64,000 bases of DNA from a virus (lineage: Duplodnaviria > Heunggongvirae > Uroviricota > Caudoviricetes). The translations under genes were made by a program, and so were the position numbers. Numbering within the stretch: the first letter of the stretch is position 1; each line of letters opens with the position of its first letter. The notes beneath the pieces were generated by a model, which was given only the letters and a program-made list of their open reading frames with translations, was not told the origin of the DNA and made no database searches. This document shows, piece by piece, positions 1,302 through 59,266 of this stretch. The DNA is taken from IMG/VR virus record IMGVR_UViG_3300046820_001896. One strand, written 5' to 3'.

Positions 1302-1310
1302 AAGTACTAC

Positions 1311-16065: not shown

Positions 16066-16310
16066 TGATTATTAATAAAGATACACTCCGCAAAGAACTT
16101 AAAGAAGGTGTGAAAACGATCACCTTCACTAAGACTGATGGCACTCAACGTGTATTGAAGTGCACTCTACAAGAATTTGTGTTGCCACAAGTAGATGCTA
16201 CTAAATTAGTAACTGCCAAAAAGCAGAACGATGAAGCACTTGCAGTGTGGGACATTGAGAACGCAGGGTGGAGATCATTTAGGTATGATTCAATCATCAG
16301 CGTCGTATAA
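16062..16310 (+). CDS. hypothetical protein (82 aa)
   Basis: ORF; ATGA overlap. Confidence 0.35.
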   Translation: MMIINKDTLRKELKEGVKTITFTKTDGTQRVLKCTLQEFVLPQVDATKLVTAKKQNDEALAVWDIENAGWRSFRYDSIISVV

Positions 16311-44409: not shown

Positions 44410-47400
44410 ATGTCACTGAAGATTTTTTCACAAGCTCCTTACAACGATGACTACGATGAAACGAAGAAATATCTTCGTATGTTGTTTCGTCCAGGAGTTT
44501 CATTACAGGTACGAGAGTTAAATCAGCTACAAACTTATCTGCAAACTCAAATTCAGCGTTTAGGTTTACATTTATTTAAAGAAGGCTCAATGGTCATTCC
44601 AGGTCAAACTGCGATTGACACAAAAATTGTATATTTAAAAATTCAACCTGAAACAAACGGCGTTGAAATTAGTACTATTCTTGCAGATTTGGTTGGTAAG
44701 ACTATTACCGGTGCTAGCGGTGTACAAGCTCAGGTTCTTACATACGCTGCAGAAGAAGATACAGATCCTATTACATTATTCGTGCGTTATGTTGCATCTT
44801 CTGATGATGAAGAAACAAAAACATTTTCTGCCGAAGAATTATTAACTACTACTATCGATAGTGAAGAATACACATTACAAATTCTTCCATCGACTGATAC
44901 TCCAGTTGGTTTTGGTTCTATTGCATCTATCGAAGCTGGTGTTTATTTTATTAAGAGTCAATTTGTACAAGTTGATTCTGCTACAATCATTCTTTCTAAA
45001 TATAGCAATACACCGACATATCGAGTTGGTTTATTGGCAACAGAAAACATTGTAACATCTAATTCTGATGCTTCACTAAATGACAACGCCAATGGTTCTC
45101 CAAATGAGAATGCTCCTGGTGCTCATCGTTACCAATTATTATTAACATTTGCAAAATTAGCAGTTGATTCAGAATTAGACGAAAACTTTATTGAATTACT
45201 TCGTATTGAAAATGGTGAACTAAAGAGTAAAGTAGAAACATCTACATATTCTGAACTTGCTAAAACATTAGCACGTCGTACATTTGACGAATCTGGTAAC
45301 TATACAGTTCGTCCATTCAAATTAGCAATTCGCGAACATCGTAATAACGATCGCGGGCAATGGCAAGCATTTACTGAATATCGTTTAGGTGACATTGTAA
45401 AGAGCGGTGATAATTATTTCACAGCTATGGAAACTGCTACGTCTGGTAGTATCGAACCAGCTACTACTTTCTCTGAAACAAATCCATATCAAATCTATTC
45501 AGATAATAACATGGATTGGAACTATACTCCACGACCATCGTTTAATCGTGGTTACAAAACACCAGAAAACGGTGGTTCAGAATCTTCATTTGCAGTTGCT
45601 ATTGAACCTGGTAAAGGTTATGTACAAGGTTATGAAATCGAGAAGATTGCTACTGAATTCTTAGAAGTTCCTAAGTCAAGAGAATTTGCACGCATTGATA
45701 GTGATTCAATCGATATCAAGTACGGAAACTATGTTTATGTTTCTAACGTACGTGGTGTACCTGATTGCACAACATATCCAACAATCACTTTATACGATCA
45801 ATTAACTCCATCAACAAATTCTCAAGCTTCTGGTGCAGGTAATGCGATTGGTACCGCTCGTCTTCGTGCATTCGAATATGATTCAGGTACTCCTGGTGCA
45901 TCTGCAGTTTATAAAGCATATTTGTTCGACCTTCAAATGGAAGCTGGTTATACATTTGAACGTGATGTTAAACAATTCTTTTATGATTCAGGAACAACAT
46001 TAAGCAACTTCGTTGCAGATGTTTCACAAATTTATACTACATTAAGCGGTACAGTTAGCGGATCATCTACAACTGTTACAGGCGTTGGTACAAAGTTTAC
46101 AACTGAATTAAAAGTTGGAGATTATATTCGTGTTGAAGATTCTGCTGGAGCATTAGAAGTTCGCAGAGTTACTTCAATCACAAATAACACAACACTTGCT
46201 ATTGCTTCTGCTTTTAGCGGTACAGTTACTGGTAAAACATTTCAACGTGTGATGACACAAGTGCAAGATCCAAGTTTCACTGGATTGATTTTCCCTCTTG
46301 CACAATCATTTATTCGCAAAGTTCGTGGTGGTGAAAATGATGCTACATTTGCAACATCATACACAACTACACAAAAATTCACAGGTTCTACTTCATCAGG
46401 TCAATCAACACTGACAATTTCAGTTGGTGCTGCATCTGGTGCAACAACTCTTGGTACAGAATTTAATCCTTCAGCAAATAAAAATGAATTCGTTGTAATT
46501 AATAGATCAACTGGACGTCCAGTTAATCCAACTGCAATTAATTTATTAAATAATGGCGCGGATGCACAAATTACTGGTTTAAGTCAATCTTCTTCATATA
46601 CTGTATTTGCTCCAGTTCGTAAAGCTGGCACAATTGCACAAGAAAAGAAGAAAACACTTGTAAGCAATGCAGTAAAAGACTTCACTTCTATTGGTGCAGT
46701 TCAACCATTAACATTGTCTCTTGGTAAAGCTGACGGCTATCGCATTGTTGCTATTCGCATGAAGAATAGCGGATTCACTGCATCATCTAATCCAACTGAA
46801 ACTACTGATATTACTGATTGGTACACATTTGATAATGGTCAACGTGAAACACACTATGATGTAGCTACAATCACACGTAAACCTGGATATCCAGTTCCAA
46901 AGGGTGCTGTTCGTGTAATTTTTGATTATTTCGATCACACAGCTGGTACTGCCGGTGACTACTTTACAGTAGACTCATATTCAGATATTCCATTTGAAAA
47001 TATTCCATACTTCACGCCTGCTGGTGGCATGATTGCTCTTGCTGATGTTATGGATTTCCGTCCACGTATTAATGATGTTGGTACAGGTTATAGTAGCACA
47101 GGTGCTTCTCCATCAGAGTTGCCAAAACTTGGATTTGAAACAATTGCAAGTTACTCACACTATCTTGCACGTCGCGATAAATTAGCATTAGATATCGAAG
47201 GCAGATTCTTTACAATTTCTGGTGTAGCAAGTACTGCTCCGCAAGAACCAAAAGATCCAGCTCTTGGAATGATGTTAGCTAAGTTAAATGTTTCTCCATA
47301 CACAGCTTTCCCAAGCGATGGTTCTGTTACAATTGAAACTATCGATACTAAACGTTACACAATGCGTGATATCGGTAAGTTAGATAAGCGTATCGAAAAC

Positions 47401-50400
47401 TTAGAATACTACACAGCGCTTTCATTGTTAGAAAACGAAACAAAATCTCTTGCAATTAAAGACGATGTTGGCTTAGAACGTTTCAAAAATGGTTTCATTG
47501 TCGATAATTTCAAAGGTCAAGACTTAGGTGACGTAGCTTCTATTGACTATCGTTGCTCTATCGATATGACTGCACAAGAATTACGTCCATTTTACACAAT
47601 GGATAACGTAAACCTTGTTGAAGAAAACCAGATTAATGCTGATAGAACTTCTGACGGTTACCAATTGACAGGCGATATCATCACATTGCCATATACACAC
47701 TTTAAGTTTATCACTCAACCATTTGCGTCACGCACTGAGAACGTTAACCCATTTGCGGTGTTTACATTCTTAGGTCAAATGTCATTGAATCCACCATCTG
47801 ATGATTGGTTTGAAACAGATCGTCGTCCAGATATTATTACAAACGTAGAAGGTAACTTCTCTGCTGTACAAACACAACTTGAAAAACAAGGTGTTCTTGG
47901 CACAGTGTGGAATGCATGGCAAACAACATGGACAGGTCAAACACGTAATATTGATCGCTTAGTTGTTTCACGTGGCTTCGATAGTACAAACTATGGTCTT
48001 GGCGCTGGTCGTTGGATGGATCGTCGTACATTTACTGCTGCTGAACTTCGTGCTATTGGTGGTGATGCTCCATCATTTGGTAATGGTGCTGCTGGTGCTC
48101 GTGTATTGACATTCCAAACACAAGCTACAACAATTGGACAATCACGTTCAGGTATCACAACATCTGTTGTTCCTAAGGTAGACTATGAAGTTGTTGGAGA
48201 TAAAGTTCTTCAAACTTCTGTTATTCCTTACATTCGTGCACGTGAATTATTATTTGTTTGCCGTGGTTTAAAACCTAACACTAAATTAAATCCATTCTTT
48301 GATGATGCATCTATTCAAGCATATGTAACTCCTGCTACTCGTCTTCCAATTACTCAAAATGGTTCATTAGAATTCGATACAGAAACTAATGCTGGTGCGG
48401 CAGCAAATGACATTGGTCGTCAAGTTGGTGGTAAACCAGAAGTATCATTCAACAAGGGTGATGTTGTGTATGTTAAAACGCGTGGTGGTACAACATACAA
48501 CTCACAAGTAACATCGCCAGCTCGTGGTGTTGCAGTGTTGAAAGAAAAAACTACTGACACTGGTGCAGAAGCTGTTTATGTTCTAAACGTAACTGGTACT
48601 TTCCAAGGTGGAGACGTTATCAAAGGTTCTCTATCAGGTGCTGAATATATTATTCAAGGATCTGGTTCAATTGCTACTGCAACTCAAGGTTCAAACTTAG
48701 TAACTAACTTTAACGGTAACTTAGCTGGTGTATTCTCAATTCCAAATACAGATAGCATGCGCTTCCGTACAGGTGTTCGTGAATTTAAGTTAAGCGATAG
48801 CGTAACTGGTGGTAACGATTTTACAACACAAGGTCGTGGCACATATCGTGCTCAAGGTACATTAGAAACTAAACAGCGTTCTGTTAATGCTGTGCGTAAC
48901 TCTGAAATTGTTACACGTCCTGCATCAGAAACACGTACACAAGAGATCTTCTCTCCTGAACGTATCGTACGTGATACTGGTTGGTATGACCCTCTTGCCC
49001 AAACTATTATGATTGGTTCTAAGGGCGGTGCATTCTTAACTAAAGTTGATATCTTCTTCTCTACTAAAGATGCAAACATTCCAGTTAACTTACAAATTCG
49101 TGAATCTGTAAACGGTTACCCAGGTCCAGGTATTCTACCTTTCTCTAAGGTTACATTAAACCCAGATCAAATCATAACATCTAATGATGCATCTTTAGCA
49201 ACTACATTTACATTTGAATCTCCAGTTTATGTTCAAGACGAGACTGAATACTGTATCGTTCTTCTATCTGATTCAAACAACTATCGTGTTTGGATTTCAC
49301 AACTTGGTGAAAAAAATATTGGTACAGATCGTTTCATCTCTGAACAACCATACGCAGGTGTATTGTTTAAATCACAAAACGCTTCTACATGGACTGCTAA
49401 CCAAGAACAAGATTTGAAGTTCACAGTATATCGTGCTGAGTTTAATACAAACACAGAAGGCGTGGCTACATTCACTAATGATATCCTTCCTCCTGCTGTA
49501 TTAGATGGAAATCCATTTAAGACAACACTAGATTCGTCTAAGGTTCGTGTATCACATCGTAATCACGGCATGCCAGCAGGTTCAACAGTAATCATTTCTA
49601 ACGTTGCAGATGGAGACTATAACGGTATCGTTACAACATCTACTTCTGGTCTAAACGGTGAATTCATTATTAGCAACCCAGAACCAGATTCATATGTTAT
49701 CGATACTGGTACTGATGCTGATGCAACTGGTTTTGTTGGTGGTACAGATGTGGTTGTTTCTGAGAACGTTCCAATGGATGCTGCTCAGTTAATTACTCAA
49801 TCACAAACATTCTCTGACACAACATTATCATATGAAATGTTGACAACAGATTTATCATATAATCTTGCGACTGAAGCAACTAGCGTAATTCCAAATGAAA
49901 CAGTATACTTTGGCACATCTCAACAAGTTGCTTCTGCTATTAACGAAGAAACTGCTACTCCATTAAATGGTTCAAAGTCATTGAAAGTTATTGCAAGATT
50001 GAATACAGATAATTCTGCATTATCTCCAATCATTGATACTTCACGCTTATCAGTTGCAACAATCAAAAACCGTGTTGATAATTTCACATACGCTACTAAG
50101 AACGTTGCAGGTTTAGATGATATCATCGTAGCAGATGCAATTTCTGGTTTCACTTTCGATTCTGGAAGCCCTGGTACAATCTTTGTTCCAAGTACAGCAA
50201 GATCTGCGGTGCGTTCTATCACAGTTGGAAAATATGTTTCTGTAAGTGGTACAACAAGCAATAACACAACAATTCCTGTGTTAGTCACAGCAGTTGCAGC
50301 AAATGGTTCATCAATCACGACTAATTATGCTGGATTTACAACAGAATCTCCAGCAAATACTACTATCACATTGAAAGATAATTTCATCGATGAAAGTGTA

Positions 50401-50766
50401 CCAATTGGTGGTTCTGCGACATCTAAGTACTTAACTCGTTTAATTAACTTAGAACAACCTTCAACGTTCTTGAAAGTTATGTTCGCAGCAAACATTCCTG
50501 CGGTCACTGATTCAGACATTGAAGTTTGGTACAAGTTAATCCCAACTGGTACAAACGGTGATATCTCTCAACATTCATTTGTGCGTGCTACAACTCCTCT
50601 TAAGAACGTTAAGAGAACATCTAACCCAGACGAGTTCGTAGATGTACAATACGATTTGACAGATCTTCCAGCATTTGATGGTGTTGTTGTTAAGTTAGTA
50701 TTTAAGTCTGGCAATAGTGCTCAACCTCCACGCGTTAAAGAGTTGAGAGTAATTGCTTGTGCATAA
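44410..50766 (+). CDS. giant virion structural protein (2118 aa), putative baseplate/fibre component
   Basis: Single uninterrupted ORF. Thr/Ser/Gly-rich beta composition. CBM5/12-like W..Y..GD.V.SG.NYF motif at ~aa 310. Confidence 0.6.
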   Translation: MSLKIFSQAPYNDDYDETKKYLRMLFRPGVSLQVRELNQLQTYLQTQIQRLGLHLFKEGSMVIPGQTAIDTKIVYLKIQPETNGVEISTILADLVGKTITGASGVQAQVLTYAAEEDTDPITLFVRYVASSDDEETKTFSAEELLTTTIDSEEYTLQILPSTDTPVGFGSIASIEAGVYFIKSQFVQVDSATIILSKYSNTPTYRVGLLATENIVTSNSDASLNDNANGSPNENAPGAHRYQLLLTFAKLAVDSELDENFIELLRIENGELKSKVETSTYSELAKTLARRTFDESGNYTVRPFKLAIREHRNNDRGQWQAFTEYRLGDIVKSGDNYFTAMETATSGSIEPATTFSETNPYQIYSDNNMDWNYTPRPSFNRGYKTPENGGSESSFAVAIEPGKGYVQGYEIEKIATEFLEVPKSREFARIDSDSIDIKYGNYVYVSNVRGVPDCTTYPTITLYDQLTPSTNSQASGAGNAIGTARLRAFEYDSGTPGASAVYKAYLFDLQMEAGYTFERDVKQFFYDSGTTLSNFVADVSQIYTTLSGTVSGSSTTVTGVGTKFTTELKVGDYIRVEDSAGALEVRRVTSITNNTTLAIASAFSGTVTGKTFQRVMTQVQDPSFTGLIFPLAQSFIRKVRGGENDATFATSYTTTQKFTGSTSSGQSTLTISVGAASGATTLGTEFNPSANKNEFVVINRSTGRPVNPTAINLLNNGADAQITGLSQSSSYTVFAPVRKAGTIAQEKKKTLVSNAVKDFTSIGAVQPLTLSLGKADGYRIVAIRMKNSGFTASSNPTETTDITDWYTFDNGQRETHYDVATITRKPGYPVPKGAVRVIFDYFDHTAGTAGDYFTVDSYSDIPFENIPYFTPAGGMIALADVMDFRPRINDVGTGYSSTGASPSELPKLGFETIASYSHYLARRDKLALDIEGRFFTISGVASTAPQEPKDPALGMMLAKLNVSPYTAFPSDGSVTIETIDTKRYTMRDIGKLDKRIENLEYYTALSLLENETKSLAIKDDVGLERFKNGFIVDNFKGQDLGDVASIDYRCSIDMTAQELRPFYTMDNVNLVEENQINADRTSDGYQLTGDIITLPYTHFKFITQPFASRTENVNPFAVFTFLGQMSLNPPSDDWFETDRRPDIITNVEGNFSAVQTQLEKQGVLGTVWNAWQTTWTGQTRNIDRLVVSRGFDSTNYGLGAGRWMDRRTFTAAELRAIGGDAPSFGNGAAGARVLTFQTQATTIGQSRSGITTSVVPKVDYEVVGDKVLQTSVIPYIRARELLFVCRGLKPNTKLNPFFDDASIQAYVTPATRLPITQNGSLEFDTETNAGAAANDIGRQVGGKPEVSFNKGDVVYVKTRGGTTYNSQVTSPARGVAVLKEKTTDTGAEAVYVLNVTGTFQGGDVIKGSLSGAEYIIQGSGSIATATQGSNLVTNFNGNLAGVFSIPNTDSMRFRTGVREFKLSDSVTGGNDFTTQGRGTYRAQGTLETKQRSVNAVRNSEIVTRPASETRTQEIFSPERIVRDTGWYDPLAQTIMIGSKGGAFLTKVDIFFSTKDANIPVNLQIRESVNGYPGPGILPFSKVTLNPDQIITSNDASLATTFTFESPVYVQDETEYCIVLLSDSNNYRVWISQLGEKNIGTDRFISEQPYAGVLFKSQNASTWTANQEQDLKFTVYRAEFNTNTEGVATFTNDILPPAVLDGNPFKTTLDSSKVRVSHRNHGMPAGSTVIISNVADGDYNGIVTTSTSGLNGEFIISNPEPDSYVIDTGTDADATGFVGGTDVVVSENVPMDAAQLITQSQTFSDTTLSYEMLTTDLSYNLATEATSVIPNETVYFGTSQQVASAINEETATPLNGSKSLKVIARLNTDNSALSPIIDTSRLSVATIKNRVDNFTYATKNVAGLDDIIVADAISGFTFDSGSPGTIFVPSTARSAVRSITVGKYVSVSGTTSNNTTIPVLVTAVAANGSSITTNYAGFTTESPANTTITLKDNFIDESVPIGGSATSKYLTRLINLEQPSTFLKVMFAANIPAVTDSDIEVWYKLIPTGTNGDISQHSFVRATTPLKNVKRTSNPDEFVDVQYDLTDLPAFDGVVVKLVFKSGNSAQPPRVKELRVIACA

Positions 50767-50992
50767 AGCTGTTAAAGTTGAAAATGAAGTAGGTCTCTAC
50801 CGAGACCTATCTTCTGGTGCTATTGTAAATACAGACGATAGCGGTAGAAATGCATATTTAAAACAGCGCAAAGCATTGCTTAAAGCTAGAGAAGAAACTG
50901 AACAAAACACTAGGGACATTCAAGAGCTTAAAGGGGAAGTTCAAGACATTAAGCAGATGCTAAGTCAGATTTTAGCACATGTCCAAAAATAA
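50753..50992 (+). CDS. small coiled-coil protein (79 aa)
   Basis: ORF overlapping the end of the giant gene. Confidence 0.35.
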   Translation: MLVHKAVKVENEVGLYRDLSSGAIVNTDDSGRNAYLKQRKALLKAREETEQNTRDIQELKGEVQDIKQMLSQILAHVQK

Positions 50993-51003
50993 GAGAGAAG
51001 TAA

Positions 51004-52095
51004 ATGTCTGTCATAAACGTAAGTTTAGAAGATACATTCGAACAATGGAGAATTAAGACTAATCAGCTTGGTTCTACCATTGGTGATGCAGCTTCTCTTC
51101 AAACAACTTCAACAAATTTAGTTGCAGCAATCAATGAAGTTCGCAGTAATGCGGTCGTTGATGGTATCGTCACGACTTATGGCAATATATTTCAAATTAA
51201 TATTGATGAAGGCGATTCAGCTGAATTAATATTAGATTTGGACGGTAACTTAACATTAGCTGGTGATTTAATTGCTGACGTTACAGGTAACCTAAATGGT
51301 AATGCTAATACAGCAACGAAACTTCGTAATGGTCGTATTATCTCTATTACTGGTGATGCGACATGGGATGTAGTATTTGATGGATCTGCTAATGCAACCG
51401 GTCAATTGCAAATCAATCCAACAGGTGTTGTACCAGGAACATTTACTAAAGTTACTGTTGATGGAGATGGTAGAATATATGAAGGTTTTGATTTAGAAGA
51501 TACTGATGTTATTGCTGCTCTTGGATATACACCAGTAAGTGAAGATGCAGGTTATGATAATCCAAGTTGGCTGACTTCTATTAATGGTAATAAAATTAAT
51601 AGTGCAAGCAATATTACAATTGCTAACTTAACTGTTGGAAGTAGAGTATATCTTGGAAACGGTTCTGCAACTGCTCCAAGTATCGGGTTTTCTTCTGATG
51701 CTGCTCAAGATACTGGAATTTATTGGGGTGGAGATGGTTACACTTTCTTCACCAACAATGGTGTAAAAAGCGGTGAGATTCAACCTGGCGGAAACTTAGT
51801 GATGGTTGGTAACGTTGGTGGTTATTCAGATATTCGTCTTAAAAGGGATATTGAAACTATCAAAGGCGCTCTTGATATTGTTAATCAGTTAAGAGGCATC
51901 TATTATACGTCTATAGATACTAATGAACGTAGCGTTGGTGTTGTAGCTCAAGAAGTACAAAACAAAATTCCAGAATTAATTAGAGTTGGTGAAAATGGAA
52001 TGCTTTCAGTTTCATATGGAAACATGGGAGGTCTTCTTTTACAAGCTATCAATGAATTGACAGAGAGAGTAAAAGCTATCGAAGCTAAATTATGA
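51004..52095 (+). CDS. tail fibre/spike protein with C-terminal S74-type intramolecular chaperone (autoproteolytic) domain
   Basis: SDIRLKRDIETIKGALDIVNQLRGIYYT...GVVAQEVQ..PELI...G.L.V.YG.....L..AINEL matches the endosialidase/L-shaped-fibre chaperone domain. Confidence 0.7.
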   Translation: MSVINVSLEDTFEQWRIKTNQLGSTIGDAASLQTTSTNLVAAINEVRSNAVVDGIVTTYGNIFQINIDEGDSAELILDLDGNLTLAGDLIADVTGNLNGNANTATKLRNGRIISITGDATWDVVFDGSANATGQLQINPTGVVPGTFTKVTVDGDGRIYEGFDLEDTDVIAALGYTPVSEDAGYDNPSWLTSINGNKINSASNITIANLTVGSRVYLGNGSATAPSIGFSSDAAQDTGIYWGGDGYTFFTNNGVKSGEIQPGGNLVMVGNVGGYSDIRLKRDIETIKGALDIVNQLRGIYYTSIDTNERSVGVVAQEVQNKIPELIRVGENGMLSVSYGNMGGLLLQAINELTERVKAIEAKL

Positions 52096-52502
52096 CTTTA
52101 CAAACAACAGGATTAATCACTCTTAGAGATATAGCAAATGAGGCTGGGCAACCAACCTCATTTTCGCCTTCCCTATCGTGGGTTAAATCAATCGTAAAAC
52201 CCGCAAATAGACTTCCAACTAATGAGATTGACGATGTCTATGGATTTGCATATTTCCAAAAAAATTCTGAAGGCAACTGTGCTAACGGAAATTGTACAGC
52301 AAATTGTAATTGTGGAAATATTCAATGTACTAACTGCGCTATTACTGGAACAGTAAATTGTACAAACTGCGATACACAAGCTTGGTTACAACCAAATTGT
52401 AATTGTGCTTGCACATATAATTGTAACCAAACACAAATTAGCTATAACTGTGCGTGTGCTTGTGCATGCGCTTGTGCTTGTGCTGATGGTGGCGGTGGAT
52501 AA
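52092..52502 (+). CDS. Cys/Asn-rich protein (136 aa): ~60-aa N-terminal region, then an 18-Cys core of NC/CxNC repeats ending in (CA)6-DGGGG
   Basis: Seen in translation. (TGYGCN)6 microsatellite at 52448-52485. ATGA-coupled to the fibre gene upstream and directly followed by a rSAM-SPASM enzyme. Confidence 0.55.
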   Translation: MTLQTTGLITLRDIANEAGQPTSFSPSLSWVKSIVKPANRLPTNEIDDVYGFAYFQKNSEGNCANGNCTANCNCGNIQCTNCAITGTVNCTNCDTQAWLQPNCNCACTYNCNQTQISYNCACACACACACADGGGG

Positions 52503-52523
52503 ATAGTTATTTGAGGCGATATT

Positions 52524-53957
52524 ATGATATTTGAAATTTTAGCAGAACGCAGTGAAAAAGATAGAAAAACATTTTTTTACGATAATATAAAAAATGTCTT
52601 ATCTTCAGAGGATGGTTTCATATTTAGTGTGGAAAATAAAAAAACACACAATCATATTGCTATACCATTTTCTAAAAAATCCCCATTGAAAAAATCAAAG
52701 AATATTACAAAACTAAAGATCCAAATGGGTCTTTCGTGTAACTATTCTTGCGACTATTGTTCTCAAAAGTTTGTTGGTCGTCCACCAGAAACCAATAAAA
52801 AAGACATTGATGACTTTATGAAAAAGTTAGAGGTGTTAGAATTCACAGAAGAACAAGGTTTATCAGTAGAATTTTGGGGAGGAGAGCCATTCGTTTATTG
52901 GAAAACTATGAAGCCTCTCGCAGAAGCTATTATGGAAAAGTTTTCTCATTGGAAAAATAGACCTAAGTTTTCAGTGATCACAAACGGTTCTATCTTAACA
53001 AGAGACATTTGTGCTTGGTTATATTACATGGGGTTTTATGTTTCAATTAGTCATGACGGTCCAGGGCAAAGTGTCAGAGGTCCTGATCCATTCGAAGACG
53101 AAGAAGCAAAAAAGATCGTATTAGAATTTTACAAAATAATGAAGCCACAAGGTAGAATTAGTTTTAATTCTATGCTTAATTCTAAAAATAAAAATCGGAA
53201 AGCAATTCACGAATGGTTTATCAATTTTACTGGAGATCCCGAAGTTCCTTTAGGAGAAGGTGCTTTAGTTGATGCATATGATTTAGATGGTATGAATAAT
53301 TCACTATCTACTAAAGAAGAACATTTTGAATTTAGAAGAAATTCTTTTAATGATATTAGATCGAATAATGGTTATATTGGATTTGGAACTATATTACAAA
53401 AAATAGATGGTTTTACTAATTCAGTGATGAATCAACTACCAGCTTCTGGATTAGGACAAAAGTGTGGAATGGATGATCAACATGTTTTAGCGATTGATAT
53501 GAAAGGCAATGTATTAACTTGTCAAAATGTATCTGCTGTTGAAACTGCAATGAATGGTGAATCTCATTTAGGCGGAAACTTAGATGACTACGATAATGTA
53601 GAGTTAAAATCTTCTACTCATTGGGCAAATAGAGAAGAGTGTTCAAAGTGCCCAGTTTTGCATCTATGCAAAGGTTCTTGTATGTTTTTAGATGGTCAGT
53701 TTTGGAAAACAACATGCGATAATGCTTATTCTGATAACATTTCACTTTTTGCTTTAGCATTCGAAAAGATGACATCAGGGTATATTCCATTGTACATAAA
53801 TAGTAATGAATTATCCCCAGAAAGAAAAGATATTTGGGGAACAATATTAAGCCATAAAGAAGAACCTACTAAAAAAATTATTCCTATTATTGCTGTAAGC
53901 GAAAAAACAGTATTAAATGATGTAGAAGTCTATACACAAGCAAAGGTAACACAATGA
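52524..53957 (+). CDS. radical SAM enzyme with C-terminal SPASM domain (peptide/protein-modifying maturase class)
   Basis: CNYSCDYC (Cx3Cx2C), GGEP-like FWGGEPF, auxiliary cluster CSKCPVLHLCKGSC (Cx2Cx5Cx3C) plus upstream Cys. Confidence 0.8.
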   Translation: MIFEILAERSEKDRKTFFYDNIKNVLSSEDGFIFSVENKKTHNHIAIPFSKKSPLKKSKNITKLKIQMGLSCNYSCDYCSQKFVGRPPETNKKDIDDFMKKLEVLEFTEEQGLSVEFWGGEPFVYWKTMKPLAEAIMEKFSHWKNRPKFSVITNGSILTRDICAWLYYMGFYVSISHDGPGQSVRGPDPFEDEEAKKIVLEFYKIMKPQGRISFNSMLNSKNKNRKAIHEWFINFTGDPEVPLGEGALVDAYDLDGMNNSLSTKEEHFEFRRNSFNDIRSNNGYIGFGTILQKIDGFTNSVMNQLPASGLGQKCGMDDQHVLAIDMKGNVLTCQNVSAVETAMNGESHLGGNLDDYDNVELKSSTHWANREECSKCPVLHLCKGSCMFLDGQFWKTTCDNAYSDNISLFALAFEKMTSGYIPLYINSNELSPERKDIWGTILSHKEEPTKKIIPIIAVSEKTVLNDVEVYTQAKVTQ

Positions 53958-54274
53958 TATTAATTGATGTAGAAAGTCAAAATTTGCCTGAATTAATTCG
54001 TTTATATAAGACTATTCCTTATGTTGTCCAAATAAGATGCAATAAAATATTAAGACAGCATTATAAAGATTTTGTAGGAGAAGATGGTTTGTATGTTGCA
54101 TGTTTAGTGCAGGTGAAGTCAGGCGAAGACAAATATTTAAAGTTTGAAGATATCTTATCTAAAGAGGTGTGGGATGATCCCATGCAATATCAATATTGTC
54201 TGCAGAATATGAAATTAAAAATAGATGATTACATAGAAAATGATGTTCTTCCAAAAACACCATATAGCGAGTAA
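53954..54274 (+). CDS. small protein (106 aa), paralogue A of a tandem pair
   Basis: Shares V.Q.R....L.Q.F.DLVG.DG....CL....E.F.K...IDDYI..D..P with 54277-54573. Confidence 0.45.
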   Translation: MILIDVESQNLPELIRLYKTIPYVVQIRCNKILRQHYKDFVGEDGLYVACLVQVKSGEDKYLKFEDILSKEVWDDPMQYQYCLQNMKLKIDDYIENDVLPKTPYSE

Positions 54275-54276
54275 TT

Positions 54277-54573
54277 ATGGAAACACCTAATTTATTAACT
54301 TTAGTAAATCGTCTTAGACAAACTGAACATGTTACGCAAGTTAGATATCACCAAGTTTTAAAACAACGTTTTAGAGATTTAGTTGGAGTAGATGGTATTT
54401 CAATTGTATGTTTACTTACTAATAAAGCTAATCCTGAAAATTTTGTGAAAATTGTAACTATTTTAGAAGCTTCAGTAATTGAGAATTTAGAACGACATGA
54501 TGCTATCATAGAAGATATTAAAACAAGAATCGATGATTATATCATCAGAGATATAAGGCCACCAAAATTCTAA
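54277..54573 (+). CDS. small protein (98 aa), paralogue B of a tandem pair
   Basis: Paralogous to 53954-54274. Confidence 0.45.
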   Translation: METPNLLTLVNRLRQTEHVTQVRYHQVLKQRFRDLVGVDGISIVCLLTNKANPENFVKIVTILEASVIENLERHDAIIEDIKTRIDDYIIRDIRPPKF

Positions 54574-55307
54574 TGTTAACAGATCAAGAAATTAATGACT
54601 ATTACGATAGTCTTGTGCCAGTTATGCCAAGACCAGAAGATCGTGTCGTAGATATGTCATTTAAAAATACTAATACCAACATTCTAATATCTGCCGGTAG
54701 ATTATTAGCTGTTGCCAATTATTCTGCAAGCGTAAAAGCATTAGCAGAATTTAATAAATCTAATATTTTTACATTTCAATTAGTAGGAATGGAAGAACGT
54801 CCAAATTTATATTTTCAAAAAAATAAATGTTGGAGAATTCGTGTTACTGAAGATGGTAAAGCTTGGCAAGATTCGCCTAATATTGAATCAATCGAACAAT
54901 TATATGATTTTATTTTAATCTCTCAAAAAGCTGCAGTCTTAGATGTTATTCATCGTCGTTTAGATATGAATAGACGTAGAGAAATTAAAGCTGCACAAGG
55001 TCAAAATCACATCTATTTTGCAAAATATTTAGAAGCAAAAGAAATCCTTGAAAAAGGAATTACTGAAGATCCTATTTGTAAATATCCATTTGTTACTGGA
55101 TATGCTGATTTAGTCGGAATGGATATTGTAGAAGCATCTAAGCGCATTAAATTTAAGTATGAAACTCGTGCATCATTTTTAGCAGAAAATGAAACGCTTA
55201 GATTAAAATATACTGCATTCGTTAAACAGCAAACTACTCTGGAAGATTTAGGTGCTGTGTTAGAACAATTTAAAGCTGAAAGCACAAAGTACGGCGATTC
55301 ACTATGA
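54573..55307 (+). CDS. hypothetical protein (244 aa)
   Basis: ORF; ATGA overlap. Confidence 0.5.
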   Translation: MLTDQEINDYYDSLVPVMPRPEDRVVDMSFKNTNTNILISAGRLLAVANYSASVKALAEFNKSNIFTFQLVGMEERPNLYFQKNKCWRIRVTEDGKAWQDSPNIESIEQLYDFILISQKAAVLDVIHRRLDMNRRREIKAAQGQNHIYFAKYLEAKEILEKGITEDPICKYPFVTGYADLVGMDIVEASKRIKFKYETRASFLAENETLRLKYTAFVKQQTTLEDLGAVLEQFKAESTKYGDSL

Positions 55308-56425
55308 GCACTATATTTTATAATAGTTATGATATCTTCGTAAATGAAGCATATCATGAAAAACGCAATCAAATTCCAGGTGGTCATGCATTTGGTGGTT
55401 ATTTTCAATTATTTTCTAGCAATATTACATCTATTGACAGAACGAATACATTTAGTATACCACTAAAGACTACTGTATTACCTCATCTTCAAATGCCAAA
55501 AATGAGAACATTCACTAAATCATTTAGTGATATTTGTGATGATAGAGCCATTGAATTGATGAATAAAGCTAAGACAGATAATCGTAAGATTGCGGTTATG
55601 TACAGCGGAGGAATTGATTCTACTGTTATTCTGTGTGCTTTATTAAAGAACTGCACAGAACAAGATTTAAAAAACCATGTAATTGTGCTTTTGACAGATC
55701 ATAGTATTTTAGAAAATCCTAATTTTTATAATGACTATATTATCAAAAAGTTTGAATGTGTTTCAAGTTATAGATTTCCATATTTCCTAGGGAATGATGA
55801 TTACATCGTAATTTCTGGTGAAAATGCAGATCAATTGTTTGGTTCACAAGTAGTTGCTAAATTTATTGCATATCGTTCGTTTGATTATTTGTTTACTCCA
55901 TTAGATCAAGCTGCTGGGGATATCATTGATTGGATGACTATGAAATTGCAAGATGAATATAAAAAATATGCGCCTTATTATTGGCAAATGTTTAGACATC
56001 TTTGCAATGCTGCTCCGATTCCTATTGATAACGTATATAAATTTTTCTGGTGGATTAACTTTACAAACAAATGGCAATCAGTATATGTTCGTATTTTACC
56101 ATACGCTAAAAATAGAAGTAATATTAAATTAGAAGATAATTACACTACGTTTTTCTGCCCGCAAGATTTCCAATTGTGGTCATTAAATAATCCAGATAAT
56201 CTAGTAAAAGAATCTTTAGATAATGTAAAATATATCGCAAAAGATTATATTTTAGATTTTAATGGAGATCAATCTTACTATAAAAAACCTAAGATTGGTA
56301 GCTTAACTAATATTGTGAAGCAAAAAGAAATTGTTATGTTATTAAATGATGATATGACATTTACAAATGACTACCCAGATAGTCAACACTGGAATGAAAC
56401 AAACACTTTTTCGGAGATGATGTAA
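55304..56425 (+). CDS. PP-loop ATP pyrophosphatase (adenine-nucleotide alpha-hydrolase; asparagine-synthetase-C-terminal-like)
   Basis: IAVMYSGGIDSTVILCAL matches the SGGxDS PP-loop. Confidence 0.55.
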   Translation: MSTIFYNSYDIFVNEAYHEKRNQIPGGHAFGGYFQLFSSNITSIDRTNTFSIPLKTTVLPHLQMPKMRTFTKSFSDICDDRAIELMNKAKTDNRKIAVMYSGGIDSTVILCALLKNCTEQDLKNHVIVLLTDHSILENPNFYNDYIIKKFECVSSYRFPYFLGNDDYIVISGENADQLFGSQVVAKFIAYRSFDYLFTPLDQAAGDIIDWMTMKLQDEYKKYAPYYWQMFRHLCNAAPIPIDNVYKFFWWINFTNKWQSVYVRILPYAKNRSNIKLEDNYTTFFCPQDFQLWSLNNPDNLVKESLDNVKYIAKDYILDFNGDQSYYKKPKIGSLTNIVKQKEIVMLLNDDMTFTNDYPDSQHWNETNTFSEMM

Positions 56426-57069
56426 TGATTATTGAAAACAAGATTGATGTGCTAGATACGATGTATCCTTGTTATGCTGAAAAAGTAGTAAATGCATTAT
56501 ATCACTCTAAAGCATATTGTACATTATATGGATATATTATGTCAGGAGAAGTTACATTTCCTAATGGAAGTGTAGCTGTAGAAGGGCAATATTTTTGTTA
56601 TTGGACTGGTGAAGGTGATTCTATTAGAACTACTGGTGAAGTTTACATATTCACACGCTTTGGATTCAAAGGACAAAACACCATTGGTGGTCCAATTGAA
56701 GAAAGCGGTCGTTTAGTTTATATAGATTCTTGTTCTGATAGTTTATTGGTGTATCCTCCTAGAATGGGAGATCCATCTTTAAACTTATTACAATTTCCTT
56801 CTGCTGTCAAACAATCGTATCATATCCATCCGAGCATTAGACTTGGAGTAGTTGTAAAAGGTAAAGGATATGCTTGTATCAAAAAAGCATATGAAGAAGA
56901 ACAAATTGAATTAAAGCCAGGTGTTATGTTCTGTATAGAAGAAAGAGAACAACATCGTTTTATGACAACATACGATGAAATGACAGTTATAGCATTCCAT
57001 CCAGACGGTGATTGGGGTCCAACTGATCATAATCACACAATGTTAAACAGAACATATATTACGAAATAA
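56425..57069 (+). CDS. cupin-fold protein (214 aa)
   Basis: YHIHPS...G..Y...E...H two-motif cupin pattern; HPDGDWGPTDHNH. Confidence 0.45.
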   Translation: MIIENKIDVLDTMYPCYAEKVVNALYHSKAYCTLYGYIMSGEVTFPNGSVAVEGQYFCYWTGEGDSIRTTGEVYIFTRFGFKGQNTIGGPIEESGRLVYIDSCSDSLLVYPPRMGDPSLNLLQFPSAVKQSYHIHPSIRLGVVVKGKGYACIKKAYEEEQIELKPGVMFCIEEREQHRFMTTYDEMTVIAFHPDGDWGPTDHNHTMLNRTYITK

Positions 57070-57081
57070 TCGGAGAAAAAT

Positions 57082-57441
57082 ATGGCAGCGCCAAATATCG
57101 TTAACGTTTCAAACATTACTGGAAAAACAGCTGTAATGTTTGTTACTACATCTGCGCAAGATCTTATCACAAATCCTGCATCTAGCAATAAAGTTTTAAA
57201 ACTAAATAGTTTGACTATTGCTAACGTTAACGGAACTGCAGCTGCATCTGTGACTGTTAGTATTTTTAGAAGTTCATCAGAGTATAAACTTGCACATACT
57301 GTTTTCGTTCCAGCAAATGCTACTTTAGTTGTAGTATCAAAGGATAGTGGAATTTATTTAGAAGAAGGCGATAGTTTACGCATTGTCGGATCAGCAAATA
57401 ATTATTTGCATGCAGTATGTGGATATGAGAGCATTAGTTAA
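57082..57441 (+). CDS. hypothetical virion-module protein (119 aa)
   Basis: ORF in the fibre module. Confidence 0.45.
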   Translation: MAAPNIVNVSNITGKTAVMFVTTSAQDLITNPASSNKVLKLNSLTIANVNGTAAASVTVSIFRSSSEYKLAHTVFVPANATLVVVSKDSGIYLEEGDSLRIVGSANNYLHAVCGYESIS

Positions 57442-58073
57442 TGTCTTTACGCAACAAAGGTAAAGCTGGTTATATTGGATACGACCGTGTTAGTAGTCCT
57501 GATGTTGGAAGCGGTATATGGAACTTAAACCAACATCACACAGCTGTATCTGATTATAGTTGGGCTGGTCAGTCTGTATACACAAACTATGATGGAAATT
57601 TAAATGGTTTTACTGTTAGCGGAGCTACTACTAGCAGTAATGCCATATATGTTCCAGGAAATAGTTATGCATATAGAGATATGATATCTCCGTTCACTAG
57701 TTTATTATTTAAAACAATGACTTTTGAAGTTTATATTAGCGGCGGAGTATGTGGTGTATTAATTGGAAGTTCTACTGCCGGTAGAGGACCTTTATTAAAA
57801 CTAGATGCACGTGGCGGCAGTAATTATAGCGGTATGATGTTCCAAACTTCTTGGACTGTTAGAGGTGATCCTCCAGTTACCGGTGTGCAATTACCAGCGA
57901 ATTCATGGGTACCTGTGCGACTAGAAGTTAATAATGCGATGCGTATTGACTGGTCTGCAAATAATAGGTATGATCGTCAACCTATTCTTTTATCTGGTCC
58001 ATTTATTACATTCCTTGGATTAGGCGGCGGCGGTTATTTTAGAAATATTAGAGTTTATAATGGTGTATCATAA
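57441..58073 (+). CDS. hypothetical beta-rich protein (210 aa); N-terminal GIWNLNQ motif shared with the next gene
   Basis: ATGA overlap. The shared motif is SGIWNLNQ here and NGIWHLKQ in the next gene. Confidence 0.45.
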   Translation: MSLRNKGKAGYIGYDRVSSPDVGSGIWNLNQHHTAVSDYSWAGQSVYTNYDGNLNGFTVSGATTSSNAIYVPGNSYAYRDMISPFTSLLFKTMTFEVYISGGVCGVLIGSSTAGRGPLLKLDARGGSNYSGMMFQTSWTVRGDPPVTGVQLPANSWVPVRLEVNNAMRIDWSANNRYDRQPILLSGPFITFLGLGGGGYFRNIRVYNGVS

Positions 58074-59266
58074 TGTATAACGGCGGAATATTTGGTAAAA
58101 AAAATTATCCAAACGTTTTTAATGCTAATGGTATATGGCATTTAAAACAAGTTGGGGATTTTATACATCGTGGTGAATGGTATTTTGCAAGAAGCGCAAC
58201 TGTTAATGCTACTTCATTTTTAGAAGGTGATACTATCACTGTTACAATTAATGCTCCAAGCTTACCAGACGGTACAAAACTATATTGGACTATTAATACT
58301 GTTTCAGGAACTATTCGTACAGATGATTTCGATAATCGTATTTTGAATGGTCCGCTTTCTATTATTAATGGAAAAGATACGACTAGTAGAAAATTAGAAA
58401 CAAGTAAACAAGGAGATGGTAATAGATCATTTACTATTGCTATTAGAACTGAATCTGTAGAAGGTCCAATTATTGCAACTACTCCTGTTTTAACACTAGA
58501 CGACGTAGCTCGTGGCGGTAATGCCATTTTTGATAGAGGTGGATATCGATATCATAAATTTACTTCTTCTGGTAATTTCCTTTGTAATCGTTCTCTCGGT
58601 TTAACTGTATTTGCAGTTGGCGGAGGCGGTGGCGGTGGCGGTAATGGTGGAGGTGGCGGCGGTGGCGGAGGTATCGTATATACAAATATCTCTGTTGGAG
58701 CTGGAACTTATTTTATTGGAATAGGTGGAGGAGGAAGCGCAGCTCCTAATGGTAGTGTACACGGAGGAAACGGTGGAGCTACCACATTTCAAGGATTTAT
58801 AACTGCTAATGGCGGTGGCGGTGGTGGCTCTCGAGACACAGATCGTAACGGTTATTATGGTGGTTCAGGTGGTGGTGGATCTAGTAATGGTGGAGGAGGT
58901 GGCGGTACTCCTGGCCAAGGTAATAATGGTGGTAATGGTATTATTGCTGGTTCTGGTGAAGTCCAATCTACTGGCGGTGGTGGCGGTGGATATGGCGGTG
59001 GTGGACAAAACGGTGCTGCTAAAGATGCTGGTAATGGTGGACCAGGAGGTGCATTTGATCCAACTGCCGACGGTACTGCAGAATATTATTCTGGCGGCGG
59101 AGGTGGAGGTAGAACTGTTTTCGGTACTACTGGTTCAAATGGTCAAGGGCAAGGTGTCAATAGAGGTGGAGGAGGTAAAGGCGGTTCTGGAGGATCGACT
59201 TCATTTGCTGCTCAAGCTGGAGACACAGGCTATTGTGTAATTCGTTATTTGATTCCGAGTAATTAA
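58073..59266 (+). CDS. glycine-rich protein (397 aa) with poly-Gly tracts; candidate receptor-binding adhesin
   Basis: GGGGGGGGNGGGGGGGGG and multiple GGxGG runs encoded by GGY repeats. Confidence 0.5.
   Translation: MYNGGIFGKKNYPNVFNANGIWHLKQVGDFIHRGEWYFARSATVNATSFLEGDTITVTINAPSLPDGTKLYWTINTVSGTIRTDDFDNRILNGPLSIINGKDTTSRKLETSKQGDGNRSFTIAIRTESVEGPIIATTPVLTLDDVARGGNAIFDRGGYRYHKFTSSGNFLCNRSLGLTVFAVGGGGGGGGNGGGGGGGGGIVYTNISVGAGTYFIGIGGGGSAAPNGSVHGGNGGATTFQGFITANGGGGGGSRDTDRNGYYGGSGGGGSSNGGGGGGTPGQGNNGGNGIIAGSGEVQSTGGGGGGYGGGGQNGAAKDAGNGGPGGAFDPTADGTAEYYSGGGGGGRTVFGTTGSNGQGQGVNRGGGGKGGSGGSTSFAAQAGDTGYCVIRYLIPSN

Follow-up and report, generated by a model that had tools for sequence, protein, structure and literature searches.

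Results and Discussion

The genes at 52092-54573 of the window (the whole 64,000-nucleotide stretch of DNA, from a T4-like phage, analysed here) lie within the tail-fibre gene block and are best explained as belonging to a phage module of wide distribution, the core of which, judging from sequence, is a 136-aa Asn-Cys protein together with a radical-SAM (rSAM)/SPASM enzyme. Enzymatic modification of a fibre-tip protein of the virion by this module is the best explanation of our data, with a probability of roughly 0.6. The recurrence of the pairing in hundreds of unrelated phages and prophages suggests chemical modification of phage fibre tips by a class of enzyme that had been known only from peptide natural products. 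The literature that we searched contained no description of an rSAM enzyme paired with an Asn-Cys fibre protein.

Genomic context and the S74 tail fibre

The cassette comes after the baseplate genes, a VrlC gene and an S74 fibre gene, and every gene given here with coordinates is on the plus strand. The VrlC-type giant baseplate protein (44410..50766, 2118 aa; PF16075 DUF4815, E 3e-60) opens the host-recognition (fibre) block and is context, outside the cassette; the genes upstream of it match T4 baseplate PHROGs for the tail-tube cap and for wedge and hub subunits, including the hub/tail lysozyme family. This layout agrees with that of pelagimyophages, where the 'host recognition cluster' comes after VrlC (PMC7029224). 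The open reading frames, motifs and gene overlaps listed for the cassette by a first-pass annotation, which used the sequence alone, were all borne out, and the genes form an operon with gaps of -14 to +21 nt. Three genes of 119, 210 and 397 codons follow in the same tight operon (57082..59266, gaps of -1 to +12 nt; context only) and probably encode further fibre or structural proteins; the 397-aa Gly-rich protein matches Gly_rich_2 (E 1e-13).

The tail fibre (51004..52095, 363 aa) carries the expected C-terminal S74 intramolecular chaperone (Pfam Peptidase_S74, 43.9 bits, cut-off 22) and matches tail-fibre PHROGs (best E 8e-31). The Ser-Lys dyad S275-DIRL-K280 (SDIRLK) is present, and self-cleavage before S275 is predicted. 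As had been proposed, the fibre gene is translationally coupled to the gene of the 136-aa protein, its stop and the following start overlapping as ATGA.

The Asn-Cys protein

The 136-aa protein (52092..52502) contains 18 Cys, every one within the last 75 residues, in agreement with the earlier count, and ends in CACACACACACADGGGG. It has 11 Asn-Cys dipeptides compared with 3.3 ± 1.5 in composition-preserving shuffles, 11 being reached in 0 of 5000 shuffles, and its CACACA stretch is not a perfect DNA microsatellite because the codons are mixed. With 165 homologues at E <= 1e-5 in a word-indexed database and matches to 122 clusters (50% identity) among 1.84 billion representatives, the Cys-rich ORF is, by homology, a real gene; a search against the curated NCBIfam models gave no match. 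Across the family, Asn precedes 67.5% of the Cys of the repeat, with Asp often taking its place; 2195 NC dipeptides are present where shuffles give 712 ± 21, and Asn is conserved as strongly as Cys.

AF2 modelling and conservation identify residues 1-60 as a conserved, confidently folded domain (pLDDT 77-90), and most of the Cys-rich part scores below 50. The earlier description of a leader plus a Cys-rich core is not the best one, since this N-terminal part is folded and conserved and since the prophage repeat is the end of fibre proteins of 180-616 aa; a structural fibre-tip component is the best explanation of the protein.

The radical-SAM/SPASM enzyme

The 477-aa enzyme (52524..53957) has both cluster motifs that had been read from it, CNYSCDYC (CX3CX2C) at residue 72 and CSKCPVLHLCKGSC (CX2CX5CX3C) at residue 373, and passes the corresponding profiles (PF04055, 36.6 bits, cut-off 29.5; TIGR04085 SPASM, 35.3 bits, cut-off 27). 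Seven C-terminal Cys are conserved (C314, C333, C373, C376, C382, C386 and C398), and the enzyme matches phrog_1802 (E 1e-63) and has 3018 homologues at E <= 1e-20. Its assignment to the peptide maturases was upheld, as the best NCBIfam matches are maturases of Cys-containing peptides, namely PapB (74 bits), geopeptide maturase (69), QhpD (68) and CcpM (63), every equivalog model scoring far below its cut-off. Among solved structures, CteB matches at E 1.5e-12. The enzyme does not belong to a housekeeping or nucleotide-modifying family. In Achromobacter phage JWF the rSAM homologue was originally annotated as an anaerobic sulfatase maturase (anSME).

Conservation of the pairing

Of 80 viral (IMG/VR) loci with an rSAM homologue, 74 also encode an NC-repeat homologue at most 2.4 kb away on the same strand; it immediately precedes the rSAM gene in 41 and immediately follows it in 22. 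Cut contigs account for five of the six viral loci lacking this partner; in L072, which has full flanks, the rSAM gene is present and the NC protein absent. Furthermore, more distant rSAM homologues of prophages (about 34-49% identity) are found just downstream of a protein ending in (Asn-Cys)n in 50 of 55 bacterial loci, scored as an ORF ending in (XC)n, n>=3, within 4.5 kb upstream of the rSAM gene, and the background rate of such tails is 2 in 2483 ORFs. The pairing spans T4-like phages, a siphovirus, an Ackermannviridae phage, and Burkholderiales and alphaproteobacterial prophages. The association noticed in the window holds over hundreds of loci. A Paraburkholderia contig with an S74 fibre, the ATGA overlap, a Cys-rich 134-aa protein and the rSAM gene, and with the accessory genes absent, looks like the minimal module. 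A Gly_rich_2 protein is also present 3' of the module in this contig, and one homologue of the Cys-rich protein (L012) has a Gly-rich insert.

The carriers of the repeat are fibre proteins in many of these loci. Among ten prophage carriers tested, seven match tail-fibre PHROGs (best E 5e-89). An S74 chaperone is fused directly after the repeat in 27 of 183 family members (...CDCFW followed by SDDxLK), and the predicted mature end of these forms agrees with the '...CACACW' ends of the short forms; a Hint domain takes this place in gp028 of Achromobacter phage JWF, in the carrier of a B. paludis MSh1 contig (L112) and in that of L098. The repeat is thus the literal C-terminus or precedes a self-cleaving S74 or Hint domain, and therefore would become the mature distal end of the fibre. 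Another 29 of the 183 members have an unexplained C-terminal 'SKIIC' domain of about 170 aa with hydrophobic helices; this domain, like the unpaired rSAM gene of L072, is a point against fibre-tip modification.

Partner proteins and accessory genes

The two small proteins encoded behind the enzyme (53954..54274, 106 aa; 54277..54573, 98 aa) are paralogous, as had been suspected, with 31% identity, and belong to a conserved family 3' of the rSAM gene that is the third partner of the module. Partner 1 aligns with the C-terminal half of proteins of about 220 aa directly 3' of rSAM genes elsewhere (hhalign probability 95-97%), as half of a split two-domain partner. The suggestion that they are of RRE/PqqD type did not hold: the fold (alpha/beta in partner 2) is not that of an RRE, and a search of the cassette for an RRE found none.

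The remaining three genes, which had been counted with the core, are lineage-specific accessories: the 244-aa protein (54573..55307), the putative PP-loop (adenine-nucleotide alpha-hydrolase) ATPase (55304..56425, 373 aa) and the cupin-like protein (56425..57069, 214 aa) occur in 10, 10 and 5 of 85 loci, the first two always together in the identical ten. The 244-aa protein has no match in Pfam, PHROG, NCBIfam or PDB. The PP-loop protein has SGGIDS at residue 101 and scores below the family cut-offs (PF01171, 18.7 against 27; Asn_synthase, 15 against 21), and its likeness to AsnB of lasso cyclases, proposed earlier, is a sub-threshold match confined to the P-loop region and shared with TilS, LarE and GMP synthase. 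The cupin is just under its own threshold (Cupin_2, 26.9 bits, cut-off 27.2). Most relatives have 2OG-Fe(II) oxygenases in place of these accessories, and halogenase-like enzymes, hydroxylases and B12-rSAM enzymes are also found beside the pair. The cupin possibly stands in for the 2OG oxygenases of the other variants; hhalign detected no homology between it and the PF13759 oxygenases (probability 4-9%).

Proposed mechanism and alternative explanations

We propose that the 136-aa protein would be made in the reducing cytoplasm, with its translation coupled to that of the S74-processed fibre, and that the rSAM enzyme would modify its C-terminal repeat while the two small partners may help to hold the unfolded tail. 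Action of the enzyme on the repeat is very probable and presence of the protein in the virion probable. The likeliest reaction would be hydrogen abstraction from C-alpha or C-beta of an acceptor Asn or Asp, followed by thioether formation with the Cys thiols; a thioether product is tentative, at slightly under even odds. QhpD, PapB and CteB work by hydrogen abstraction and thioether formation, NxxcB, PapB and QhpD use Asn and Asp as acceptors, and Cys-to-Asp and Cys-to-Asn beta-thioethers are known products of ranthipeptide and sactipeptide maturases. The product would be a covalently stapled distal tip, resistant to redox change and proteases, which in relatives would be decorated further by 2OG oxygenases, Asp/Asn beta-hydroxylases and halogenase-like enzymes, a role that the 244-aa protein, the PP-loop protein and the cupin would fill in the window. 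In the QhpD/QhpC system, where thioether acceptors are acidic (Asp, Glu), an rSAM/SPASM enzyme likewise acts on a small Cys-containing protein kept as a structural subunit (the gamma subunit of quinohemoprotein amine dehydrogenase), and TIGR03906 aligns to residues 61-387 of the window enzyme. However, the 68 bits of this match fall far short of the family cut-off (453), the phage substrate is a fibre-type protein whose Asn-Cys repeats hold 15-30 Cys and which is encoded within a virion gene block, and the partners QhpA, QhpB and QhpE are absent.

Known phage fibre tips rely on metal coordination or autocatalysis, and none is known to need a dedicated radical enzyme; in T4 gp37 and gp12, metal ions are established to lie on the three-fold axis of the tip. 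Self-stabilised tips (the HxH iron needle of gp37, S74 chaperones, gp38-type adhesins) resemble our system in having an element at the distal C-terminal tip of a trimeric fibre, with S74 domains flanking it and with the gene in the position of a tip adhesin or chaperone. The Asn-Cys tail could be a metal- or iron-sulfur-binding motif of a trimeric tip, a Cys analogue of the HxH sites, and the enzyme could have a role different from cross-linking, such as a different modification or assistance with cluster or metal loading. The CxC, CxxC and CC patterns of the repeat region (24.5% Cys) resemble metallothionein-type ligand sets, four near-invariant Cys (C79, C82, C90, C93) form a CxxC-x7-CxxC knuckle pattern, and AF2 gives no fold for the region when it is modelled as a monomer without metal. 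We consider this rather unlikely, as it leaves unexplained both the near-universal coupling to an rSAM/SPASM enzyme and the conservation of Asn equal to that of Cys; moreover, we know of no rSAM/SPASM enzyme that is a metallochaperone. It is unlikely, too, that the enzyme acts on the repeat by another chemistry, such as Cys-to-formylglycine conversion as in anSME, C-C cross-linking or cyclopropanation as in TvgB, epimerisation or another carbon-centred reaction. Its closest solved relative by sequence is indeed the cyclopropylglycine synthase TvgB (PDB 8vpo, E 1.9e-16), which forms C-C bonds rather than thioethers (PMC10878394) and so counts against a thioether product; the DynA, YhhB and HxsB models also match, and SPASM enzymes are chemically diverse (PMC10114670). 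TvgB, however, acts on Val-rich repeats. The phage repeat is rich in Cys and Asn, with hardly any Val and not rich in aromatics, and among the profiles the enzyme best matches those for enzymes of Cys-rich peptides. Similarly, anSME shares the fold class and the two auxiliary clusters, acts on a full-length protein and matches the window enzyme over its full length, but TIGR03942 gives 45 bits against a cut-off of 349, the window has no sulfatase gene, and the repeat sequence lacks C/S-x-P/A-x-R, the motif that anSME recognises.

A free RiPP toxin had been named as the alternative to fibre-tip modification. It is unlikely, and the gene pairing, the S74/Hint fusions and the tail-fibre PHROG matches favour the fibre-tip reading, the chemistry of which we infer. 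As a classical RiPP, residues 1-60 would be a leader and the Cys-rich core would be cleaved and released as a phage toxin or signal, which we regard as very unlikely. The architecture does resemble ranthipeptide clusters, since in PapB (the best NCBIfam match), CteB/SCIFF (a solved relative), CcpM and NxxcB systems the rSAM/SPASM gene also sits beside a repetitive Cys-rich substrate; the tailoring enzymes found beside the pair in relatives fit as well. At 27 of the 82 viral loci gp32, gp59-like and PhoH-type genes, and not recognisable fibre genes, adjoin the pair (34 more are undetermined), which also speaks against fibre-tip modification. On the other hand, scores fall below the equivalog cut-offs (340-720), no RRE was found, and Pfam, NCBIfam and PHROG profiles detected no protease (such as a leader protease), exporter or immunity gene in the cassette. 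Moreover, the supposed leader is conserved and confidently folded, and the phage substrate is translationally coupled to a fibre gene, fused to self-cleaving S74 or Hint domains directly behind the repeat, or the end of long prophage proteins, most of those tested matching tail fibres. Lastly, the adjacency could be incidental, both genes gathering in a hypervariable host-recognition island and the enzyme having an unrelated target; host-recognition clusters are hot spots for gene cassettes, rSAM genes included (PMC7029224). This is highly improbable given the low background of NC tails and a pairing that persists from T4-like phages to prophages at the low rSAM identities reported above.

Genomic setting and organization of the cassette

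The window belongs to a T4-like myovirus, with a 12-tRNA cluster, a gp32-type SSB and a baseplate block that matches the T4-type tail-tube cap, wedge and hub PHROGs. The baseplate genes are followed by the gene for a 2118-aa DUF4815/VrlC protein and then by the fibre genes, so that the radical SAM (rSAM) cassette is embedded in the fibre and host-recognition block, where the first-pass annotation had located it; all the ORFs named there were found. The pelagimyophage "host recognition cluster" has the same layout, and rSAM cassettes were noted in it and left unexplained (PMC7029224). From the VrlC-type gene to position 59636, neighbouring genes are spaced by -14 to +21 nt and three of the junctions are ATGA overlaps, which points to one tight operon. 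Scanning for promoters and terminators gave none above the shuffled expectation, the only intra-operon terminator call being a CACACA pseudo-hairpin; this hairpin (52450-52471) sits within the CACACA coding repeat and is most likely a by-product of it, not a signal. Across 52524-56425, which contains the genes for the rSAM enzyme, the small proteins, the 244-aa protein and the PP-loop protein, the G+C content falls to 28-32%, compared to 36-43% in the flanking fibre and structural genes; this would fit a cassette acquired from elsewhere.

The fibre encoded at 51004-52095 matches numerous tail-fibre PHROGs and carries the expected S74 chaperone domain (Peptidase_S74, 43.9 bits against a cut-off of 22) with its Ser-x4-Lys catalytic dyad (S275-DIRL-K280; SDIRLK at residue 275). 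As had been described, its stop overlaps the start of the 136-aa ORF (52092-52502) as ATGA, and all 18 Cys of the 136-aa protein lie within the final 75 residues, the C-terminus being CACACACACACADGGGG. Asn-Cys dipeptides number 11, compared to 3.3 ± 1.5 in shuffled sequences, and 11 or more were obtained in 0 of 5000 shuffles. A slippage-prone microsatellite was considered for the CACACA tail and rejected, given its mixed codon usage, and the tail therefore looks protein-selected.

A distinct radical SAM/SPASM subfamily

The 477-aa enzyme encoded at 52524-53957 is a member of the radical SAM superfamily, as claimed from its motif: PF04055 scored 36.6 bits against a gathering threshold of 29.5, and the CX3CX2C motif (CNYSCDYC, residue 72) is invariant in nine diverse homologues. 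SPASM membership was judged by the CX2CX5CX3C motif, by additional Cys that could ligate two auxiliary [4Fe-4S] clusters and by whether the profile cut-off was exceeded. TIGR04085 reached 35.3 bits against 27, CSKCPVLHLCKGSC (CX2CX5CX3C) lies at residue 373, and diverse homologues all retain seven C-terminal Cys (C314, C333, C373, C376, C382, C386 and C398). The best curated matches were rSAM/SPASM maturases of Cys-containing peptides or proteins, not the housekeeping or nucleotide-modifying families that had been raised as a possible objection. Taking a whole-protein score at or above the curated cut-off as equivalog membership, the enzyme stayed below it for PapB (NF047865, 74 bits against 340), QhpD (TIGR03906, 68 against 453), CcpM (TIGR04068, 63 against 500), anSME (TIGR03942, 45 against 349) and SCIFF (TIGR03974, 44 against 425), and the geopeptide maturase score (69 bits) was also far below its equivalog cut-off. 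With all named maturases so far under their cut-offs, the enzyme falls into a subfamily of its own, whose phage representative is phrog_1802 (E 1e-63). Its solved relatives are the cyclopropyl synthase TvgB (8vpo; PMC10878394), CteB and anSME, and homology to these and to the curated families leaves its chemistry unfixed.

The enzyme is paired with an Asn-Cys protein

The rSAM family comprises 3018 members at E ≤ 1e-20 and 527 confirmed IMG/VR loci, 80 of which were fetched for the viral pairing count. The proposed pairing of the enzyme with the Cys-rich protein was borne out, since a homologue of the 136-aa protein was found within 2.4 kb on the same strand in 74 of these 80 loci, directly upstream of the rSAM gene in 41, directly downstream in 22 and one to three genes apart in 11. 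Five of the six other loci are cut contigs. True absence was found only in L072 (L-numbers denote loci with an rSAM homologue; IMGVR_UViG_3300020158_000007), the only full-flank locus with an rSAM gene and no Asn-Cys protein, over ~6 kb upstream and ~9 kb downstream. Bacterial genomes contained 174 rSAM relatives, chiefly in freshwater Burkholderiales (such as Limnohabitans, Polynucleobacter and Burkholderia paludis MSh1), with others in Alphaproteobacteria. Among the 80 bacterial loci fetched, a few hold close relatives and most hold distant ones (~34-49% rSAM identity), which as a rule follow, at a distance of 1-3 kb, the genes of 180-616-aa proteins with NC endings (extreme C-termini such as ...RYNCNCDCNCC, ...NFNCNCNCACDCCC and ...NCNCGAFNCRTNCNCNCNCNCCGCC). 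An upstream NC-ending protein was present in 50 of the 55 bacterial loci with enough flank, against a background of 2 in 2483 ORFs, both of which run antisense to an NC-tail region. Furthermore, tail-fibre PHROGs matched seven of ten bacterial NC-tail carriers, with a best E of 5e-89.

A nucleotide search of 50000-58000 against isolated phages gave no match, and protein searches found relatives only in Ralstonia phage RSP15, Achromobacter phage JWF and Achromobacter phage 2-1 (42-46% identity for these three) and in RP12/RP31 (26%). In JWF, a siphovirus by gene content, the fibre gp028 lies two genes before the rSAM gene, and its NCNCDCNCNCSC ending runs straight into a Hint domain; in RSP15 (Ackermannviridae), a "side tail fiber" ending NTNCQCGN lies three genes before it. 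What looks like the minimal module occurs in a Paraburkholderia contig, where the S74 fibre and the Cys-rich protein are accompanied by the rSAM gene alone. The module extends over T4-like aquatic myophages, an Ackermannviridae phage, siphoviruses and many Burkholderiales prophages. These data show a genetic coupling between a dedicated rSAM/SPASM enzyme and the (Asn-Cys)n element that fibre-type proteins carry at their distal end, and the pairing itself is well supported. Up to four rSAM-fibre modules occur on separate contigs of single Burkholderiales metagenome-assembled genomes (JBAQTC01: L092, L098, L108, L153; CALBSC01: L094, L105, L111, L137), so that one genome may harbour several prophages or tailocin-like elements.

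The Asn-Cys repeat as C-terminal element

Members of the Cys-rich family share an N-terminal domain (MTLPxSGxI...) followed by the repeat motif GNCNNGNCTxNCNCGNIQCxNCxIxGxVNCxNCDxQxWLQxNCNCACTYNC...SYNCNCACNC. Cys and Asn make up 24.5% and 21.9% of the repeat, Asn precedes 67.5% of the Cys, NC dipeptides amount to 2195 compared to 712 ± 21 in shuffles, and Asn and Asp interchange at the residue before Cys. The family had no match in Pfam, NCBIfam or PHROG, its profile retrieved only a spurious cytochrome match from the PDB, and the AF2 monomer of the 136-aa protein, with a pLDDT below 50 in its Cys-rich part, was without a Foldseek match in the PDB.

In 124 of 183 family members the stop falls within six residues of the last Cys, and in 27 an S74 chaperone directly follows the repeat (...CDCFW/SDDxLK), as in the L004 homologue (S74 31.5 bits, SDDVLK immediately after the repeat). 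S74 domains cleave before Ser, so processed forms would end in ...CxCFW, like the numerous short forms ending in ...CACACW. A Hint fusion would leave the repeat at the exposed C-terminus in the same way: an intein-like Hint domain directly after the fibre repeat (...NCNCSC/FPAGT...) in L002:6799-8250 (JWF gp028), L112:4733-6262 (B. paludis MSh1) and L098:4208-5338 may be a self-cleaving C-terminal module analogous to S74. The repeat is thus the actual or predicted mature C-terminus in most variants, the exceptions being 29 of the 183 members with a "SKIIC" domain after it and three with Gly/Asp-rich tails. A repeat at the mature C-terminus, together with the established polarity of fibres, would be located at the distal tip, and the Cys-rich protein itself, given the S74 fusion, should adopt a trimeric fibre or spike fold. 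The 136-aa protein is a putative virion structural protein, judged by its gene neighbours and by the S74 and Hint fusions.

The SKIIC variants (L048:10482-11378 and 28 others, e.g. L077:7536-8411) have ~300 aa, with ...NCNCACNC followed by a conserved domain of ~170 aa (SKIICAKLYEFGxM...ADQxYGxWL...RGYIRWA) with hydrophobic helices at its end. This domain had no Pfam or PHROG match and may serve as a membrane anchor or as a further self-processing module; the Cys-rich gene of these loci is downstream of the rSAM gene. Another homologue (L012:311-1405) has a long poly-Gly insert between the N-terminal domain and the repeat, and a separate Gly_rich_2 protein is encoded a few genes downstream in the window (58073-59266) and in the Paraburkholderia contig.

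Accessory genes

The two small proteins (53954-54274 and 54277-54573) are 31% identical and match the C-terminal half of ~220-aa proteins encoded directly 3' of the rSAM gene in other T4-like loci (hhalign 95-97%), which are homologous among themselves (mostly 96-98.6%, lowest pair 85%). According to these profile matches, the small proteins represent a third conserved partner, which is encoded as two separate proteins in the window. The RRE (PqqD-like winged helix) that the first-pass annotation had suggested from their size was rejected, and no RRE, free-standing or fused to the enzyme, was found for the cassette. Of 85 loci, only 10 have the 244-aa (54573-55307) and PP-loop (55304-56425) proteins, always together, and five have the cupin (56425-57069), indicating lineage-specific genes. 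By hhalign the 244-aa protein showed no homology to its positional counterparts in other loci (JWF gp029, RSP15 ORF046/047 and the protein clusters c28/c33 and g1/g2). The SGGIDS motif reported for the PP-loop protein is present, but a specific AsnB or lasso-cyclase membership was unsupported: PF01171 scored 18.7 against 27 and Asn_synthase 15 against 21, the matches being restricted to the P-loop region (residues ~86-150), and the family profile gave only P-loop-region matches and one spurious PPR match in the PDB. The cupin scored 26.9 bits against 27.2 for Cupin_2 (PF07883), with ectoine synthase as best PDB match (E 0.047); homology to PF13759 oxygenases was considered and not detected (hhalign probability 4-9%).

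Instead of these accessories, most relatives carry PF13759 2OG-Fe(II) oxygenases, which were found in 55 viral loci, and the prophage proteins between fibre and rSAM are PF13759 oxygenases too (hhalign 98-99.5%). Additionally, Trp-halogenase-like flavoproteins were found in 29 loci, Asp/Asn beta-hydroxylases in 26, and desaturase-like proteins and B12-rSAM enzymes in 14 each. Examples around the pair (L051:3790-4980, L063:13508-14296, L008:6996-8522, L078:10942-11652) include a Trp-halogenase-like flavoprotein (E 2e-95), an Asp/Asn beta-hydroxylase, a B12-type second rSAM and a membrane desaturase-like protein. Such a set of tailoring enzymes is typical of natural-product clusters. Collagen-like and tail-collar proteins had been predicted earlier, in comparative work, to be modified by dioxygenases of phages and bacteria (PMC2938197). 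Distant from the cassette, a 271-aa ORF (16231-17046) had a weak 2OG-Fe(II) oxygenase PHROG match (E 6.5e-6), and the phage may encode an oxygenase there. A conserved ~270-320-aa protein, absent from the window, occurs as RSP15 ORF047 (L001:7314-8129), cluster c37 (e.g. L042:9462-10427) and cluster g1 (48 genome loci). In prophages it is encoded between the NC-tailed fibre and the oxygenase and rSAM genes, and in some T4-like loci its gene comes next after the rSAM gene (hhalign 100%); it may be a tip adhesin or assembly factor.

Proposed fibre-tip maturation and alternative explanations

We propose, with a probability of about one half, that fibre tips are matured by RiPP-type radical chemistry, in which the dedicated rSAM/SPASM enzyme would covalently cross-link the (Asn-Cys)n tail of a distal fibre protein, within or between chains. 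The (Asn-Cys)n element would be its putative substrate, 2OG oxygenases, Asn hydroxylases and halogenase-like enzymes often accompany the enzyme, and the result would be an enzyme-dependent, widespread virion maturation step that could diversify or harden the receptor-binding tip. The main thrust of the first-pass annotation is thereby largely retained, with its details corrected, and the role of the Asn-Cys protein at the virion fibre tip is a proposal that we draw from sequence. The putative products are most likely thioether links from the Cys sulfur to C-alpha or C-beta of Asn or Asp, by analogy with the precedent of QhpD, PapB, NxxcB and CteB, because Asn and Asp interchange before Cys and because a cytoplasmically assembled particle cannot rely on disulfides. 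Thioether (sactionine/ranthionine) products contain an S-C-alpha, S-C-beta or S-C-gamma bond, with 2 Da lost per link. Radical chemistry other than thioether formation has in its favour that TvgB, the closest solved relative, forms C-C bonds, and has the Cys-directed precedents against it.

A true RiPP system, which the first-pass annotation had entertained as a free toxin or signal, is unlikely. The adjacency of a maturase and a repetitive substrate is conserved, as in a RiPP-type cluster, but RRE, leader protease and exporter were not found, gene-level profile searches detecting no protease or transporter family in 51004-58073. An Asn-Cys tail that binds a metal or an iron-sulfur cluster would agree with the Cys density of the repeat and would have to be reconciled with the dedicated rSAM partner. 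A coincidental pairing would have to recur throughout the viral and bacterial loci. The fibre-tip proposal has its own weak points, since in 27 of 82 viral loci the pair lies beside replication-type genes, not fibres, and it leaves the SKIIC variant unaccounted for.

The closest functional counterparts are QhpD/QhpC and the ranthipeptide systems, although the enzyme falls below every equivalog threshold. In contrast to RiPP-type systems, the cassette is without RRE, leader protease and exporter, and its putative substrate is a fibre-type protein in virion gene blocks instead of a secreted peptide. Known cross-links of phage particles are autocatalytic (HK97) or metal-based (T4 gp37), and to our knowledge this would be the first virion structural protein matured by a radical SAM enzyme. 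The literature searched contained no description of a system that combines an rSAM enzyme, a tail fibre and a Cys repeat; the logic of enzyme plus Cys-rich substrate is known and its use on tail-fibre tips would be new. If true, rSAM/SPASM "RiPP" chemistry would reach from secreted peptides to the host-recognition machinery, with a C-terminal (Asn-Cys)n tail as a new and very simple recognition signature. This may explain the rSAM cassettes of pelagimyophage host-recognition clusters (PMC7029224), and part of the large dioxygenase/halogenase gene sets of aquatic phages may belong to the same module (PMC2938197). Phages JWF and RSP15 are cultivable carriers, and homologous modules are also present in assemblies of cultured B. 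paludis MSh1, Limnohabitans and Polynucleobacter strains. Among possible uses are receptor-binding proteins engineered for hyper-stability, and a new enzyme to staple Cys-rich tags.

Lastly, the tRNA cluster of the window (53-2891) includes two copies of tRNA-Thr(TGT) and a tRNA-Ile(TAT) call that, at 95 nt, is long and possibly holds an insertion.
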